DNA of 64,000 nucleotides, taken from the NCBI GenBank assembly GCA_964016885.1, contig OZ024753.1:35092001-35156000 (forward strand), given 5' to 3'. The stretch is from Eledone cirrhosa. Its lineage: Eukaryota. The translations under genes and the position numbers were made by a program. The notes beneath the pieces are model-generated. The model saw nothing but the letters and a program-made list of their open reading frames with translations. It did not search any database and was not told the DNA's origin. Each line of letters opens with the position of its first letter. Position 1 is the stretch's first letter. Shown piece by piece: positions 20,557-62,830 of this stretch.

Positions 20557-20661
20557 TAATATTGAATATATAATATATATATATATATATGTTTAGCCCA
20601 GGTTCAATCGGGGGTAACCACAGTAAGTATGGTACTCAATACATAGCAGAGTACAAATATT

Positions 20662-20763
20662 TAATATAGAACTGTCTCTACAGGACTAGAACTGTTTCAT
20701 TTGGCTGATAATTTGCTAATAATTTCTCCCAAATGAAACAGTACTAGTCCTGTAGAAGCCAAT

Positions 20764-20772
<9 letters not shown>
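20662..20772. repeat. imperfect inverted repeat (about 43-bp arms) in a (TA)n island, hammerhead 3' half-like
   Basis: aatatagaactgtctctacaggactagaactgtttcatttgg / ccaaatGAAACagtactaGTCctgtagaagccaattctatatt. Confidence 0.8.
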
Positions 20773-20815
<43 letters not shown>

Positions 20816-20819
20816 TCAA

Positions 20820-21017
20820 TGATATTAAATAAATGGAAACTATATTTATAAAACCATATTTATTCTATTATATATATTTCAAGGGTACCAAAACTTTGGT
20901 ACGCTCTCATCAGATAAAATACAAAGATGAGAGCGTACCAAAGTTTTGGTACCCTTGAAATATATATAATAGAATAAATATGTTTTTATAAATATACTTT
21001 CCATTTATTTAATATCA
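20820..21017. repeat. 92-bp-arm inverted repeat (2 mismatches, 14-nt loop)
   Basis: Arms 20820-20911 and 20926-21017. The right arm continues as unique element sequence to about 21115. Confidence 0.95.
20862..20920 (-). ncRNA. minimal type I hammerhead ribozyme
   Basis: ATTTTAT CTGATGA GAGCGTACCAA AGTT TTGGTACCCTT GAAA TATATA TA^ ATAGAAT: both core boxes, 11-bp stem II with one C.C mismatch, 7-bp stem I, palindromic stem III loop, AUA cleavage triplet. Confidence 0.75.
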
Positions 21018-21359
21018 GTGAATATTATACCCCAGAAAAACTGTCGAGTGCTTTGAATCAGTTATAAACATTTATATTTGTTGAATTACCAACAAATTGA
21101 ATATCCCTTTTGCTTTTATATATATATATACTGTTCAATAAATCCAGATAGCGAATCTAGTGAATCTACTACTTATGTACATACACATACACCCACACAT
21201 CATATATATGCATGGGCTATTATCAGAAATTTTAAGACTCTTTTTCTTCTATATCAAGCATTAAACTACAATGTCATTATTGTATTGTATTAGTCTGTTA
21301 TTTTTCCTTGTTGATATTTCTTATACATATATATATACATATATAATATATATATATAT

Positions 21360-21681
21360 AACGAAGGAAATGTGGTAAGGAACCAGGTGGACCATAACGC
21401 ACCAAAGTACTCAATACTTAGGGTAGTAGAGTGGGTAATAGGAACAAGTAGGACCCCGACGGCTGAGCTCAAGCCGTTTCGACAGCTAATTCTGGACGAA
21501 TTAGCCGTCGAAACGGCTTGAGCTCAGCCGTCGGGGTCCTACTCGTTCCTATATATATATATATATATAGGAACAAGTAGGACCCCGACGGCTGAGCTCA
21601 AGCCGTTTCGACAGCTAATTCTGGACGAATTAGCCGTCGAAACGGCTTGAGCTCAGCCGTCGGGGTCCTACTCGTTCCTAT
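21360..21681. mobile_element. (TA)n-embedded fold-back element (family P) with duplicated 115-bp palindrome
   Basis: Unique arm 21360-21437, palindromes 21438-21552 and 21567-21681 (55-bp arms, loop tggac) joined by (TA)n. Confidence 0.9.
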
Positions 21682-22042
21682 ATATATATATATTTTTTTT
21701 TTATTTCATTACCAAAGGTTTCAAGAAACTAGATGATTCTTGTAAGGAACATCCAGTTCTTGAAACCTTCGGTAATGAAAGAATTATATTGTGTTGTTTG
21801 TTATGTAATGAAATAGCTCTGTAAAATAGATAGAGCACTCTTTTTTCCTTTACCTTTTCTATGGAAATACTTAACACACACACATATATATATATATACA
21901 CATATATGCGTGTGTGAATATATATATATGTATATATGTATATATATATATATATATGTGTGTGTGTATGTATTCATATCTATGTGTGTATCCATATATA
22001 TATATGTGTGTGTGTATGTATACATATCTATGTGTGTATCCA

Positions 22043-28239: not shown

Positions 28240-28370
28240 TATTTTCTGATGAAGGACTAGATTTAGAAACGTTAAGACTCTTTTCCTACTATATCAAGCA
28301 TAAAACTAATAATATATTTCTTCATTGTACTGTATCATTTGCTTTGTTATTTCTGTTTACCTTTTGCATA
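28240..28370 (+). mobile_element. Penelope-like terminal fragment with hammerhead core
   Basis: CTGATGA(28246-28252)-aggactagattta-GAAA(28266-28269)CGTT-aaga. Stem II weak. Downstream part homologous to 21225-21320. Confidence 0.55.
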
Positions 28371-28554: not shown

Positions 28555-28671
28555 AACAAAGGAAATGTGGTAAGGAACCACAAGTACTCAATACTTAGGG
28601 TAGTAGAGTGGGTAATAGGAACGAGTAGGACCCCGACGGCTGAGCTCAAGCCGTTTCGACGGCTAATTCTG

Positions 28672-28674
<3 letters not shown>
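28555..28674. mobile_element. family P element, unfolded copy
   Basis: Same sequence as 21360-21497 with a short internal deletion, ends at ctaattctggac, flanked by (TA)n on both sides. Confidence 0.9.
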
Positions 28675-37327: not shown

Positions 37328-37407
37328 AATGTTCAACGATTATGTTTAGTAACATATTTTTGGTGTTTACACCAAAAATATGTTACTAAACATAATCATT
37401 GAACATT
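37328..37407. repeat. 80-bp near-perfect palindrome (39-bp arms, 1 mismatch)
   Basis: aatgttcaacgattatgtttagtaacatatttttggtgt-tt-acaccaaaaatatgttactaaacataatcattgaacatt. Confidence 0.95.
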
Positions 37408-48700: not shown

Positions 48701-49258
48701 ACACTTTCATCATATATTTATGTATATATATATGTGTGTGTGTGTATATATATATATATTATATATATACAGAGAGAGAAAGAGATAAGGTAAGATAAGC
48801 TACAACTGCTCATCTAGAACAAATAGAACAGACCCATCTATAAGACTGTGTATGCATGTCTACACACATACACAGATATATGTATGTGTGTGTGTATATA
48901 TACATATATATATATGTTATATAAGTAGATACATGCATACATGAAACACCATATGCATACACATATATGTACTAAGTTACATTGCAGATTAAATCGTAAG
49001 TTTTTATGTCAGTTAGTCTATCGAAGGAAAAACCCAGTTTCAGATTTGTAGTAATTTTAGCATTAACATATATCTTTAGTTTCATTTCAGCTTTAAAACA
49101 TTAAGTTAGCAGCCTTTATGAATGACCCATTCTGAGACAATCCAAGTCAGATGACCGGATCTTACTCATTCAGAACTGATTTTGGCTTGGTTTCTATGGC
49201 TGGATGCCCTTCCTAATGCCAATCACATTTACCGTGTGTACTGGGTGCTGTTTGATGT

Positions 49259-49790
49259 GACACCTACATGACCACTTTACAGTGTGGACTGGGTGCTTTT
49301 TGTCATGACACCTACATGACTACTTTACAATATGAACTGGGTGCTTTTTGTCATGACACCTACATGACCACTTTACAATGTAGACTGGGTTATTTTTGTC
49401 ATGACACCTACATGACTACTTTACAGTGTGGACTGGGTTCTTTTTGTCATGACACCTACATGACTACTTTACAGTGTGGACTGGGTGCTTTTTGTCATGA
49501 CACCTACATGACTACTTTACAATGTAGACTGGGTTCTTTTTGTCATGACACCTACATGACTACTTTACATTGTAGACTGGGTTCTTTTTGTCATGACACC
49601 TACATGACCACTTTACAGTGTGGACTGGGTGCTTTTTGTCATGACACCTACATGACTACTTTACAATGTGAACTGGGTGCTTATTGTCATGACACCTACA
49701 TGACTACTTTACATTGTAGACTGGGTGCTTTTTGTTGTGACACCTACATGACCACATTACAGTGTGGACTGTGCGCTTATTGTCATGGCT
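49259..49790. repeat. 48-bp minisatellite (11 units) expanded inside a family A SINE
   Basis: gacacctacatgactactttacagtgtggactgggtgctttttgtcat. 1-3 units of the same motif occur in other family A copies (5400, 7490, 28820). Confidence 0.95.
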
Positions 49791-50890
49791 CCAGGATGAC
49801 TGCTTTATGGTGGGAATTGGTCAGAGAACCACTTTTTATTCATGCATTCCATATTTTGGTATGTTTTCTATGGATGGATGCCCTTCCTAATGTTATGTCC
49901 ACTACCAATATTTTTCTGTAGTTATTAGCAAAACAAACAAAAATATAACTAGATTATTATTAGGGTGGTTGATTGGCTGTATCAGTAGAGCGTCAGACAG
50001 CATGCTTTGGGGCATAGTGTTGCATCCCTATATGTTCTGATTTTAAATCCCATCAAGGTTAGCTTTACATTTCATCCTTATGGGGTCGATAAAATAAAGT
50101 ACTAGTAACACACTGCGGTTGATTTAAAATTGTTGGCCTTGTGCCTATATCAGAAACCATCATCATCAGCATCAGGAGTAGTAGTAGTAGTATAATACTC
50201 ATCTTTGCTCTCACTATGACCATAACATATATATTAAGACTCATAGTATCGTGTTTATTATTTCCATTCTCAATAGCAGCATTTGCTACATTTCTTGTAT
50301 GCAACCAGCATCATTTAAAAATAAAAAAAAAAACTCCACCTCTATCAGAATATCATTCTCACTATAGCTTCAGTATAATCCTACTTGCTCTTCAGCTTGC
50401 TGTGCATCCCTTACTGTTGCTAATATTTATTGTCGTATACCAGTATAGTTGTCATTGATGTCTTCTACAATCATAATCAAGGAAGAAAGCAAAACATTGA
50501 TAATATAACTGTGTAAATATATTCTGTTTACTCCCTACTTTATATCAAACCCATTTGTTAATAGAAGCCCATCACTTGTCAGCATGAAAGACTTTAAACA
50601 AAGCCCTATATGCACACACGTGCCAGAGTTGTTGTCACTGCTACCATTGCTGTTACAGCAACTAGGACTACTACTTCAGCGGCTACTATTGTTCTCTTTT
50701 TCAAACCAACCAGGAAGCAAAGAATTCATATAATTTTGCTTTCATGTTATTTTTCTTATATTCTTTTACATTAAAAATAAAATCAACAACAACTACAAAA
50801 AAATCCCTAACATTTTCATTCTTTTTCCTTAATTATAACTCATTTAAAAAAATTTTTTTGTTAACTACACTCAGCTTATTATGTTGTCAC

Positions 50891-52118: not shown

Positions 52119-52205
52119 AACGAAGGGAGTGTGGTAAGGAACCAGGTGGGTCATAATGCACCAGAGTACTCAATACTTAGGGTATGTGATGATAGGAAAA
52201 GAGTC
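52119..52205. mobile_element. family P element, diverged truncated copy
   Basis: aacgaagggagtgtggtaaggaaccaggtgggtcataatgcaccagagtactcaatacttaggg within (TA)n. Confidence 0.85.
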
Positions 52206-52498
52206 ATGTATATATATATATATGTATGTATGTATATATATACATATATATATATCCTTGCTAGCAGTAATAGACAAACAGACAGTAACTAATGAGGATG
52301 TACATATAACACAATGTTTAATATTTATTATAAAATCAAGGTTTACTTTGCCTTTCATCCTTACGGGGTCGATAAAATAAAGTACCAGTAATGCACTGGG
52401 TAATTGCTGGCCTTGTGCCTAAAGTAGAAACAATTATAAAATAATGTAGTATTTATTTTCCTAAATAAAATTTTGTATATATATATATATATATATAT

Positions 52499-52766
52499 CC
52501 GGGAGCTTCCAACAGAAATGGTCGCATTCTTTAAGGGTATGTCAATATTTATTTATAAAACTGATCTATATTATATTTTATCTGATGAAAGCACACCATA
52601 ATTTAACTTGGTGTCCTTTAAATATGTATGAAATAAATATGGTTTTATAAATATAGTTTCCATTTGTTAATATATCGTTTTTTACTCCAATAATTTGTTG
52701 AGTGCTTTATATCAGTTATAAAAATATTTGCTTGTTGTAACCCAACAATTTAAATAGAACTTCTAC
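52499..52766 (+). mobile_element. relative of the 20820 element with mutated hammerhead (52575-52635)
   Basis: attttat CTGATGA AAGCACACCA taatttaact TGGTGTCCTT TAAA (GAAA to TAAA). Downstream sequence aligns with 20970-21100. Confidence 0.75.
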
Positions 52767-52882: not shown

Positions 52883-55457
52883 GTGTGTGTGTGTGTACGT
52901 TTATATTCATACACTAAAAGCTAAACAGGTGACATAGAACCCATGACTTTCAGTTATCATATGTAGTATAGATTATAATACAGTGAAATAGTGATGATGT
53001 TAAATTATGTCAAGCTAGATTACAATCTGTAAAATATATGCTCTATCCATGGTTGAATGACAAAAAAGACTGTTAATTAGCATTGAACTCAATACATGTT
53101 TTGGTACAGAGTAGTTATATTTCCACAATCTGGTGGATTTGAAAGTCAGCTGAAATGGGGAGAGCCCTCCATTACGATGTCACTCTATTTCTGATTTTAA
53201 AAATAAATATTTCAAAACCTGTATTTGAAAGCTAGTCCTCTGTTGTGAACTACTTATTGATACTTTTTCAGTTTTGAGAATAATAGATTCATACCCTGCT
53301 TATTAGAATATGTAACAAGAATGCAGATAGTATATAACCTTCTCATGGTCATATTTCCAAATAAATTTACTACCTATATGTTTCAATTAATTTTGAAAAT
53401 AATCATGAATTTAGATAGGTTTGGTAAAATAACTAGTTTTTTTATTGAAAATTTAGCGGCTTCAGTATATATTTCTTTTAATGGAAAATAATCTAAGTTG
53501 AATATAAAAGCCCTGGTCGATGCTGTCAATTTTTGTCTGTTCAGAGGCTCGTATGCCCAACTTGTTAGACTATTTTTCATAGCATATAAAAAATTATGTT
53601 GAAGCTTCTAAATTTTCAATAAATACATATCTGCTCAACTAATTTATTTTTATAAAGCTTGTAAGAGTAAGAGTAAAGATCTCCTTCGGTCACAAATGAC
53701 CATGAGATTTGCATTTAGAAAGTTCCGCTCAGAGACACGAGTCTAGGCAAGGTTGTTAGTAAAGAACCAAACACAGAACCTCTCGATTGCAAGTCCAATG
53801 CTCTAACCACTAAGCCATGTGCCTATTATATATAATGCTTGTATAAACACAATATTTAACTTTCCTAGTCGTTGTTTTCGAAACTTAACTCAAGAGAGGA
53901 AACAAATCAGTTTTTAAAAGAGTTTAAAAATTATGGACTCATTTTATATGTCTCTTTTGGCTGGTGGTTCATTCTCTAATTGTCTTTAGTCCTCTATTTC
54001 TTACTTATGAATATATATGTAGGTTATATTTGAACTCTGAATCATCTCTACTTCTAAAATAGGGCAAAGGTTCTGAGTTTGAACTCAGCCCAAGGATGTG
54101 ATTAATAAGAAGATCAGGTAATAATAGTTTTGAAATACAGCATATGCTGTGACTAATGATAGTATGAAAATATAGTACATAAAAGTTCATATACTCATAA
54201 AAGGGTTGTTGCCAAGTATGGAAAGCAGGACTGATAATGATGATGATAGTGGTGTAAATTAGAAATAAGAACTATGATATTTATAGAGTGAACATTTTAT
54301 ATTACTTTTATTATAAATTGGTTTGAAAATTATTTCAACGTCAATCCTTAGAGAATGTTAAAGACATCACTCTTCAATTATGATTTAACTAACTTCTATT
54401 ATGCACATACATGTTTTCCATGGTAAAGCATGTGTTAACCGTGTGACCCCTCCCAAGACAGGGTTCATACTCATCATAGGGCTCTTTTTGAGCTAATGTT
54501 TTATGGGAAGATGCCCTTCATTGTGCCAACCCTTTTAACGACTTTTTACAACACACAGATACAGTGTACCTACTCTAAACCAGATACAGAGTTTCCATTA
54601 TAGGAATTCTATATTATAACATTTTCACGAATGTATTTCTAATGAAATAAATACTTTGTATTTTAAATAATTAATGAAGAATTTAGAAAGGATTTACAAT
54701 AATTTTAATTTTATTAAGATGGTATTTGTTACAGGACAAAATGTTATTGTATAAAACTATATTGGAACGTTTTTATTTAAGTAGAAACACTTTAAATTGC
54801 ATGATTTTGTTTCATAGAAACAAAAGCGATTTTGGACTGGCTTAAATTAACATCTTGTGATTAAAAGAAGAGAGAAAGAGAGAAGGAAAGAGAGAGACCA
54901 GCTTCTGAGGGAATAACATAGAGGAGAGTGAGTTTTATTGTATATGACATGTTTATGTAGAAAAAGAGGACATTATTAGAGGGGATCTGTGAGAGCTAAC
55001 AAGGTTAAAATGTTGATTTCTTATTTAAGAGGCACAAGGTTGCATACATATATGTATATATATTAGAGGAGATTTATGTAATGTTTATTACTTTTCTCAA
55101 GTGGAATAAATTTGGTTTGAATCAGGAGTTAAAACTGGTTGGTTGGTCCCTGAAGTCGCTGTGACTTTACTTTTCCCAACAAATCATCTTCTGGTAAAAT
55201 AATAATGGTAGAATAATAATGGCACAAGGTCAGCAATTTGAAGGGAAGAGGAAAGTTGATTAAATTGAATCCTGTGTGTTACTGGTGCTTTATTTTATTG
55301 ACCCCGTAAGGATAAAAGGCAAAGCTAACTTCAGCAGGATTTGAACTCAGAATATAAAAGGCTATAACTATATAACCACAAAGCATGTTGTCAGCTGTTC
55401 TACTGATACTGCCAATCCACTGCCCTTCAGGTAGATTAATAATAATAAAAATCTTAT

Positions 55458-62156: not shown

Positions 62157-62228
62157 GATGTGTTGGTGTAAATGGTAGCACAGTGGTCCGAATAACCAAA
62201 AATGTGGGTTCAACTCCCATGTACGTCA
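62157..62228 (+). tRNA. tRNA-like cloverleaf (pseudo-tRNA, nominal anticodon GAA)
   Basis: Acceptor gatgtgt/gtacgtc, D arm gtgt/gcac with A box TGGTGTAAATGG, anticodon arm tggt/acca (loop ccGAAta, non-canonical C33 and U37), T arm gtggg-TTCAACT-cccat. T5 at 62238-62242. Confidence 0.6.
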
Positions 62229-62640: not shown

Positions 62641-62642
<2 letters not shown>

Positions 62643-62825
62643 CGAAGGAAAAGTGGTAAGGAACCAGGTGGACCATAATGCACCAAAGTACTCAATACTT
62701 AGGGTAGTAGAGTGGGTCATAGGAACAAGTAAGACCCCGACGGCTGAGCTCAAGCCGTTTCGACGGCTAATTCCAGAATTAGCCGTCGAAACGGCTTGAG
62801 CTCAGCCGTCGGGGTCTTACTTGTT

Positions 62826-62830
<5 letters not shown>
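62641..62830. mobile_element. family P fold-back element with perfect 55-bp arms
   Basis: Arms 62719-62773 and 62776-62830, loop ca. Flanked by (TA)n. Confidence 0.92.

Follow-up and report, generated by a model that had tools for sequence, protein, structure and literature searches.

The window, meaning the whole 64-kb stretch of DNA that was analysed, is AT-rich animal DNA with many TA and CAT repeats and appears octopus-like. A blastn search of the window with positions 21360-21498 as the query returned four loci of one repeat family, family P, at 21360, 28555, 52119, and 62641, and TA repeats flank both sides of all four, in agreement with the first-pass annotation, which had recorded four copies within (TA)n. 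Their components are as follows.

21360..21497, minus strand: long arm of copy 1, 138 nt, with the minus strand as the RNA sense; site A, the RNA-sense 3' end, adjoins (TA)n at 21360, while the 5' end coincides with the shared stop point
21360..21437, minus strand: one-sided "tail" of copy 1, 78 nt, from site A to site B
21407..21417, minus strand: 11-nt motif, a small predicted RNA hairpin
21493..21497: junction loop tggac of copy 1, the final bases of the long arm
21498..21552, plus strand: inverted short arm of copy 1, 55 nt, terminating at site B against (TA)n
21550..21569: (TA)10 spacer between the two units at copy 1
21567..21693, plus strand: direct duplicate of 21438-21564, comprising the palindrome and part of the TA tract
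28555..28674, minus strand: copy 2, a single unfolded arm with an 18-nt deletion, which stops at ctaattctggac
52119..52207, minus strand: copy 3, of subfamily 2, 5'-truncated before the hammerhead half
62641..62830: copy 4, with a long arm at 62641-62773 and an inverted arm at 62772-62830, 2 nt being common to both at the junction

The long arms of copies 1 and 4 measure 138 and 133 nt, and the inverted arms 55-59 nt. In copy 1 they form a palindrome with 55-bp arms (21438-21492 and 21498-21552), a tggac loop and two mismatches; in copy 4 the 55-bp arms are identical and the loop is ca. Both palindromes had been noticed earlier with these different loops, as had the unfolded copy 2 that halts at the same point, and all three descriptions hold. 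In the three subfamily-1 loci of the window, the arm ends at, or 1-2 bases from, the point equivalent to 28674; copy 2 ends at a point where the native sequence would go on with TA, as does the target repeat. The other end of the copies varies, as expected of 5'-truncated retro-copies whose RNA sense is the minus strand, and the earlier description of family P as retro-copied stands. The two mismatches in copy 1 are CpG-to-CpA changes, both carried by the long arm. They are older than the duplication described below and fit decay after insertion; one of them is a common family allele (32% of the depth in X1, one of the public runs introduced below). Folded as single-stranded DNA, 21438-21681 reaches −134.5 kcal/mol (z = −31.8).

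At copy 1, positions 21438-21564 are identical to 21567-21693, that is, 127 nt at a period of 129 with zero differences. Comparison of the second unit with the reverse-complemented first unit shows 9 differences, so the event was a direct duplication and not a second inversion. The first-pass annotation had called this structure a palindrome of palindromes; a palindrome duplicated across a TA spacer is indeed present, but the phrase overstates what is an exact direct duplication. The 129-nt tandem unit would have originated after insertion through slippage aided by a hairpin: the nascent strand would fold into the hairpin, and its end in the TA tract would re-anneal at site B's ATA. There is some chance, clearly on the unlikely side, that the second unit (21567-21693), and it alone, is an artefact of assembly or of long reads. 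Its 127 nt lack a single difference, and palindromes adjoining TA tracts assemble poorly, as PMC8557442 states for such insertions; however, the breakpoints lie on ATA microhomology at the base of the hairpin, as slippage needs, and the unit is direct, where chimeras from fold-back reads would be expected to be inverted. In itself, such a duplication is ordinary.

Counts beyond the window rest on 4 of 23 public runs, namely X1, X5, and X6 (contigs) and X21 (reads of a RAD library). The mapping reference was copy 2, which ends at 28674, and a second mapping used the loop of copy 1. X1 may derive from the same sample as the window, though its contigs are a separate assembly; X5 and X6 come from two other organisms. 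Family P is very abundant in these runs: 12,604 X1 contigs and 13,663 of 12.47 million X21 reads align to copy 2, along with 18 contigs of X5 and 5 of X6. Loose ends in TA were found in all four runs, and two ends against (TA)n are fixed, sites A and B, which lie 78 nt apart. At site B, where (TA)n precedes 28615, we counted 3540 X21 reads, 94 X1 contigs, 3 X5 contigs, and 1 X6 contig; molecules running on toward site A number 1180 + 2564 in X21, where counts beyond the AATT site are biased, and 52 + 264 in X1. A further 3819 and 5979 X21 molecules end at AATT, which we take to be the restriction enzyme site of the RAD library and not biology.

Among the 11 joints listed between arms, 10 join opposite strands head to head. 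In each of these ten the arms do not overlap, the inverted arm beginning at least 36 nt past the end of the first arm. The first arm ends just beyond site B, at 28618-28622, in seven of the ten, a cluster that coincides with the divergence of subfamily 2 from the reference, which sets in after 28621. All ten inverted arms start within a 16-nt zone, 28659-28674, although the three at 28674 may be an edge effect of the reference ending there. The loop of copy 1 is crossed by the eight longest X1 pieces listed out of 4516, with net length changes at the loop of −2, −2, +3, −4, −4, +4, −4, and +4; four of these eight satisfy a 31-letter bridging rule, and none has the loop length of the window itself. 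An insertion of CA at the loop is found in 10 contigs. Because X1 pieces cross the loop with varied lengths, the palindromes are recurrent, with many junctions, and are not an artefact of this assembly. The repeated folding with differing junctions that had been read from the window alone is thus confirmed in X1, where no single ancestral junction emerges from the many seen, and the separately assembled X1 contigs also answer the earlier worry that the palindrome was created during assembly.

These joints bear directly on how the arms were made. According to the first-pass annotation, reverse transcription stalls or self-primes at the ribozyme stem and snaps back; the cDNA (or an antisense RNA) would prime on itself, and the tip of the resulting hairpin would be trimmed. 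This could account for the perfect palindromes: the short arm of copy 1 is fully contained in its long arm, the junction of copy 4 holds merely 2 nt that its long arm does not supply and that tip trimming could give, and trimming of the junction with the CA insertion could yield the junctions of both copies. Self-priming has also been proposed for palindromes at inverted Penelope junctions (PMC3846280). It is unable, however, to produce any of the 10 listed opposite-strand joints with their gap of at least 36 nt. These require two primings on RNA, because an arm cannot be copied from a cDNA that lacks it. Moreover, site B ends many other molecules as well, so that snapping back is not needed there, and the long stem II with adjacent CUGANGA that this explanation predicts is absent. 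We regard self-priming as an improbable general explanation, and twin priming from both strands fits the non-overlapping joints better.

A DNA transposon of the MITE or foldback type, with 55-bp terminal inverted repeats and a TA target, would likewise place TA on both sides of the palindromic unit, as observed. Such an element should have symmetric, fixed termini and a constant interior; family P has a 78-nt extension on one arm, single-arm and 5'-truncated copies, and variable centres, and we give this explanation hardly any credence.

Priming of this kind has been shown in vitro for an enzyme of a Penelope-like element (PLE). That enzyme, the PAc protein, cuts both strands of its target and extends each of them; a dimer by prediction, it works on uncleaved RNA with two internal start sites that match the genomic tail (PMC11167929). 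Traits of PLE insertions given in PMC8557442 are an inverted 5'-truncated copy, a one-sided tail, and targeting of (TA)n, and family P displays each of them. Inverted, 5'-truncated, head-to-head copies are seen in copies 1 and 4, in the 10 listed joints, and in the loop pieces. The tail is one-sided and bounded by two putative RT start sites, at 78 nt compared with a published 30-40 nt, and the target is (TA)n at all four window loci, as in the Neptune, Hydra, and Naiad clades. Judged by its sequence structure, family P behaves like an inserted PLE end, with a presumed link to a PLE protein. Our preferred reading, to which we give about an even chance, is that each copy is a two-armed insertion into a TA tract by a Penelope-like RT/GIY-YIG enzyme, its RNA primed twice, from both cut strands, and both cDNAs probably running off the 5' end of the RNA inside a predicted hammerhead. 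The enzyme would be a PLE protein acting in trans, and sites A and B would be its internal RT start sites, each of them primed by a different strand of the cut TA tract. When the cDNA from site A halts near site B, the arms would barely overlap; when it runs on, both arms would end in the same zone and form the palindrome.

We found no RT or GIY-YIG match or remnant in the 120 of 197 window peptides that were scanned. For the peptide of the minus frame of family P, none of 57 candidates in a protein search and no Pfam family matched; the sole protein match, P0004, was rejected as a 24-fold repeated hydrophobic sequence. Nucleotide searches gave no match to a 29-nt family motif in metagenomes and none to a 20-nt motif in viral contigs. 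The one metagenome match to the 20-nt motif (L001) shares 25 nt on a bacterial-looking contig and was rejected as chance.

The zone in which the arms end adjoins a motif that resembles one half of a hammerhead ribozyme, with these parts, all on the minus strand.

21451..21487, minus strand: hammerhead-like 3' half, a descriptor match
21481-21487, minus strand: 3' strand of stem II
21477-21480, minus strand: GAAA
Within 21451..21487, minus strand: stem III of 5 bp, with a 7-nt loop that contains the palindrome GAGCUC
21458-21460, minus strand: predicted GUC cleavage triplet, followed by a G-rich stem I strand

The minus strand fits a descriptor of C-GAAA, a 5-bp stem III, and UH, composed after the motif had been seen; 32 of 20,000 dinucleotide shuffles match it on either strand, and there are 2 matches outside family P in the 64-kb window. 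The resemblance to a hammerhead 3' half noticed at first pass holds up. As in type I hammerheads, C11.1 precedes GAAA, stem III is closed by A15.1-U16.1, and a UH site is present. In the runs, no variant above the listing threshold falls in the A's of GAAA or in GUC, and the stem III variants above 10% are one wobble-compatible change and one in the closing pair. The other half, predicted at first pass as an upstream CTGANGA-GACGGT that would complete stem II, did not appear: upstream of GAAA, neither the 47 nt that can be read in subfamily 1 nor the 38 nt in subfamily 2 contain CUGANGA, and in X1, X5, X6, and X21 the 30 letters past the stop hold neither CTGANGA nor a GAC that could pair with the base of stem II. 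The partner strand of stem I would be expected upstream of CUGANGA. In X5 and subfamily 2, the continuations are able to pair with the AGCC of the arm, leaving the basal GUC without a partner. Hammerhead models of Rfam have no match at family P, and the Rfam matches at 21340-21700 are to miRNA-hairpin models and lie below their thresholds. We therefore do not class the motif as a hammerhead; its letters resemble the 3' half of one. The two core halves of a hammerhead can be separated by long insertions, as in PLE-X1_sMoe and PLE-X1_sTam (PMC8557442 File S2).

Other arrangements of the core were considered. The type II and SGC permutations, as described in PMC10085705, do not fit the visible sequence because no CUGANGA lies downstream within the element. 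No copy of the family in the window contains CTGANGA, and a scan for these permutations gave no family match, a blank of little weight given that the scan also overlooked the minimal hammerhead evident at 20913. The single candidate in the window for a trans-acting CUGANGA block, a lone 7-bp match in a GAT repeat near 50169, was rejected. A native 12-bp stem II at the centre of the palindrome was ruled out, as longer copies continue differently, and Twister and HDV-like readings were dropped on inspection by eye against their consensus features, the needed elements not being conserved between the subfamilies. The 7-mer at 21481-21487, the stem II strand, recurs at 21458-21464, across stem III and the cleavage triplet. 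Lacking its upstream partner, this 7-mer could pair with the 5' strand of stem III, a possible off-state of the half ribozyme in the modelled fold. The predicted cut site lies 98 nt from site A, and the listed copy ends show no pile-up there.

What defines the stop zone is the least certain step of the model. By eye, TTAGTY occurs at the stop point in both subfamilies, its A one base 5' of the stop; the two subfamilies are alike up to TTAGTY and divergent beyond. The motif is one base off the initiator TCAKTY quoted in PMC3601003, and the post hoc probability of TYAKTY within the given 5 positions is 0.03 in the window. A TATA-like box near −29 is clear in X6 only, one of three continuations, being ambiguous in X1 and absent from X5; TATA- and Inr-like motifs are present in a pLTR according to PMC3846280. 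Because the stop carries an initiator-like TTAGTY, transcription would appear to begin within the predicted ribozyme. In our model, the stop zone would be a Pol II start at TTAGTY within an enlarged stem II, and the 5' end of the transcript would hold half a ribozyme; in full pseudo-LTRs, the CUGANGA half would be found at some distance upstream. Many copies run past the stop, which is therefore not absolute: 76 X1 contigs and 919 X21 reads continue, and copies in X5 and X6 extend 94-99 nt beyond. The unfolded continuation is TAAAT in these X1 contigs and X21 reads and in one contig each of X5 and X6, and X1, X5, and X6 share a CCTGGT motif 15-17 letters past the stop. Such longer copies would have been primed in the downstream pseudo-LTR.

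We tentatively go one step further, in a reading that we hold to be well short of probable. Family P may be the integrated "strong-stop" product of a PLE whose promoter lies in the enlarged stem II of its own hammerhead; the half ribozyme at the 5' end would then be unable to cut off the cap or the RT start sites, and the one in the downstream pseudo-LTR would be whole.

The same twin priming could instead end where the RT stalls at structure in the RNA, namely a hairpin that resembles stem II and another, of 6 bp, that may form around GAAA instead, with joining through TA microhomology thereafter and the start of the RNA elsewhere. The truncated RNA folds with its stem II strand paired to the stem III strand, and by eye the arm can form a native hairpin with the continuations of X5 and subfamily 2. 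The 16-nt spread of inverted arm starts, as opposed to a single base, would also suit stalling, as would the end of copy 2 at a native TA that matches the target and the neighbouring family that likewise ends near its hammerhead core. The hairpins are modest, however, at −13.5 kcal/mol for 60 nt, and stalling leaves unexplained why the subfamilies are alike exactly up to TTAG and diverge beyond. We consider it unlikely, while giving it more weight than self-priming.

TTAG could also be a 3' splice acceptor, with an intron splitting the hammerhead in loop II, CUGANGA in an upstream exon, and a ribozyme formed only after splicing. In both subfamilies an AG terminates the upstream sequence, which is AT-rich and divergent. 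An open stretch of 45 codons runs through the minus frame; of its 10 common variants, 7 are synonymous, compared with an expectation of 3.1 (P = 0.012, with no correction for the 6 frames and 3 thresholds tried). PLEs retain introns, one of which ends at a hammerhead helix in D. virilis Penelope (PMC4209133). Yet at the lowest threshold only 9 of 18 variants are synonymous (P = 0.063), which makes for a weak coding signal; the peptide of this frame is without a credible homologue, and by eye copy 3 has a stop codon in it. An exon-1 class is not among the listed loose ends, and an unspliced template offers no cause for stopping at this point. Splicing is, in our estimation, very improbable.

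Around copy 1, three further two-armed inserts lie within 800 bp. The insert at 20816-21021 belongs to another family; its left arm is a complete minimal hammerhead on the minus strand (CTGATGA at 20913) with a long stem II and a palindromic TATA stem III, and its right arm begins inside the core. A decayed relative occurs at 52571-52673. The insert at 20592-20767 has GAAA, a short stem III, and UC, and its plus-strand loop opens with CTGATAA; it has GTACTCAATAC in common with family P, at 41 vs 47 nt from the TA end. The 11-nt motif (21407..21417 in copy 1) is invariant in all four family P copies and recurs in an unrelated neighbour at 20632. In the window it occurs 7 times, including the 4 occurrences in family P, compared with an expectation of 1.9, and it is a candidate enzyme-recognition element. 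The third insert, at 21700-21784, adjoins the duplication and is degenerate, with GAAA, a 2-bp stem III, and UA, and with no clear CUGANGA. Isolated CTGANGA sites on the plus strand at 28246, 13137, and 58409 were not parsed as hammerheads by the scan that also missed 20913. Elsewhere, an 80-bp palindrome at 37328-37407 (2-nt loop, 95% arm identity) is the sole copy in the window and lacks a TA flank. Two tRNA-like Rfam matches, at 62157-62228 (plus strand, 42.3 bits) and 53768-53824 (minus strand, 30.3 bits), are probably heads of tRNA-derived SINEs, and 49256-49921 is a tandem array of units of about 45 nt with an open frame that encodes a repeating DTYMTTLQC-like peptide.

Inverted, tailed Penelope insertions are already known, and opposite-strand hammerhead pairs from truncated PLEs are mentioned in PMC4209133. 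The closest parallels are insertions of the EN+ PLEs Pen2a_Av and Pen3a, which, according to PMC3846280 and the legend of Fig. 2 in PMC8557442, share with family P a head-to-head inverted copy, a palindrome at the junction, an extension on one side only, and joins at microhomology. Compared with these, a family P insert totals 120-190 nt with no ORF attached, its tail is 78 nt long, and its arms halt in a narrow zone inside the ribozyme motif. PAc, from the Poseidon clade in Anolis carolinensis (PMC11167929), likewise has two internal RT starts downstream of a hammerhead, an AT-rich target, priming on both strands, and no ends at the cut site; its hammerhead is complete and its ORF known, whereas in family P the 3' half alone is seen and no protein is assigned. 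Hydra-clade PLEs, among them Hydra-1_Obim, and the (TA)n-targeting Naiads (PMC8557442 Files S1 and S2) share the (TA)n target and a hammerhead near the 3' end. Stem III has 5 bp and a 7-nt loop in family P, whereas the Hydra entries of PMC8557442 list 3-4 bp with 1-3-nt loops, and none of eight family motifs has an exact match in the accessible supplement text of that paper.

Metazoan non-LTR retrozymes, as portrayed in PMC7229834 and bioRxiv 10.64898/2026.07.22.740005, resemble family P in being short, apparently non-coding, hammerhead-linked, and probably PLE-dependent. Family P differs from them in having no tandem monomers with a whole hammerhead each and in ending away from the cut site; its only tandem is the duplicated palindrome, which lacks CUGANGA. 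By the definition in those papers, which calls for tandem units each with a complete type I hammerhead, family P is not a retrozyme array.

In L1 twin-priming, two primings on one RNA yield a sense arm and an inverted arm joined at microhomology. The primings of family P, as compared with those of L1, occur at fixed sites, involve no poly(A), and leave arms that can overlap fully.

The literature searched, which included few subscription journals and no bioRxiv supplements, held no account of family P, nor any of transcription initiating within the hammerhead of a PLE. The mechanism of inverted and tandem PLE insertion is named as an open task in PMC8557442, and family P separates twin priming from the self-priming model of PMC3846280. 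With high-copy arms that would mark both RT start sites and a shared stop, it also offers predictions that can be tested at the level of single bases. Were the "strong-stop" reading true, double priming near the 5' end of the RNA would have spread thousands of uniform hairpins across the genome, and these hairpins would record the two start sites of the enzyme together with the first base of the RNA.
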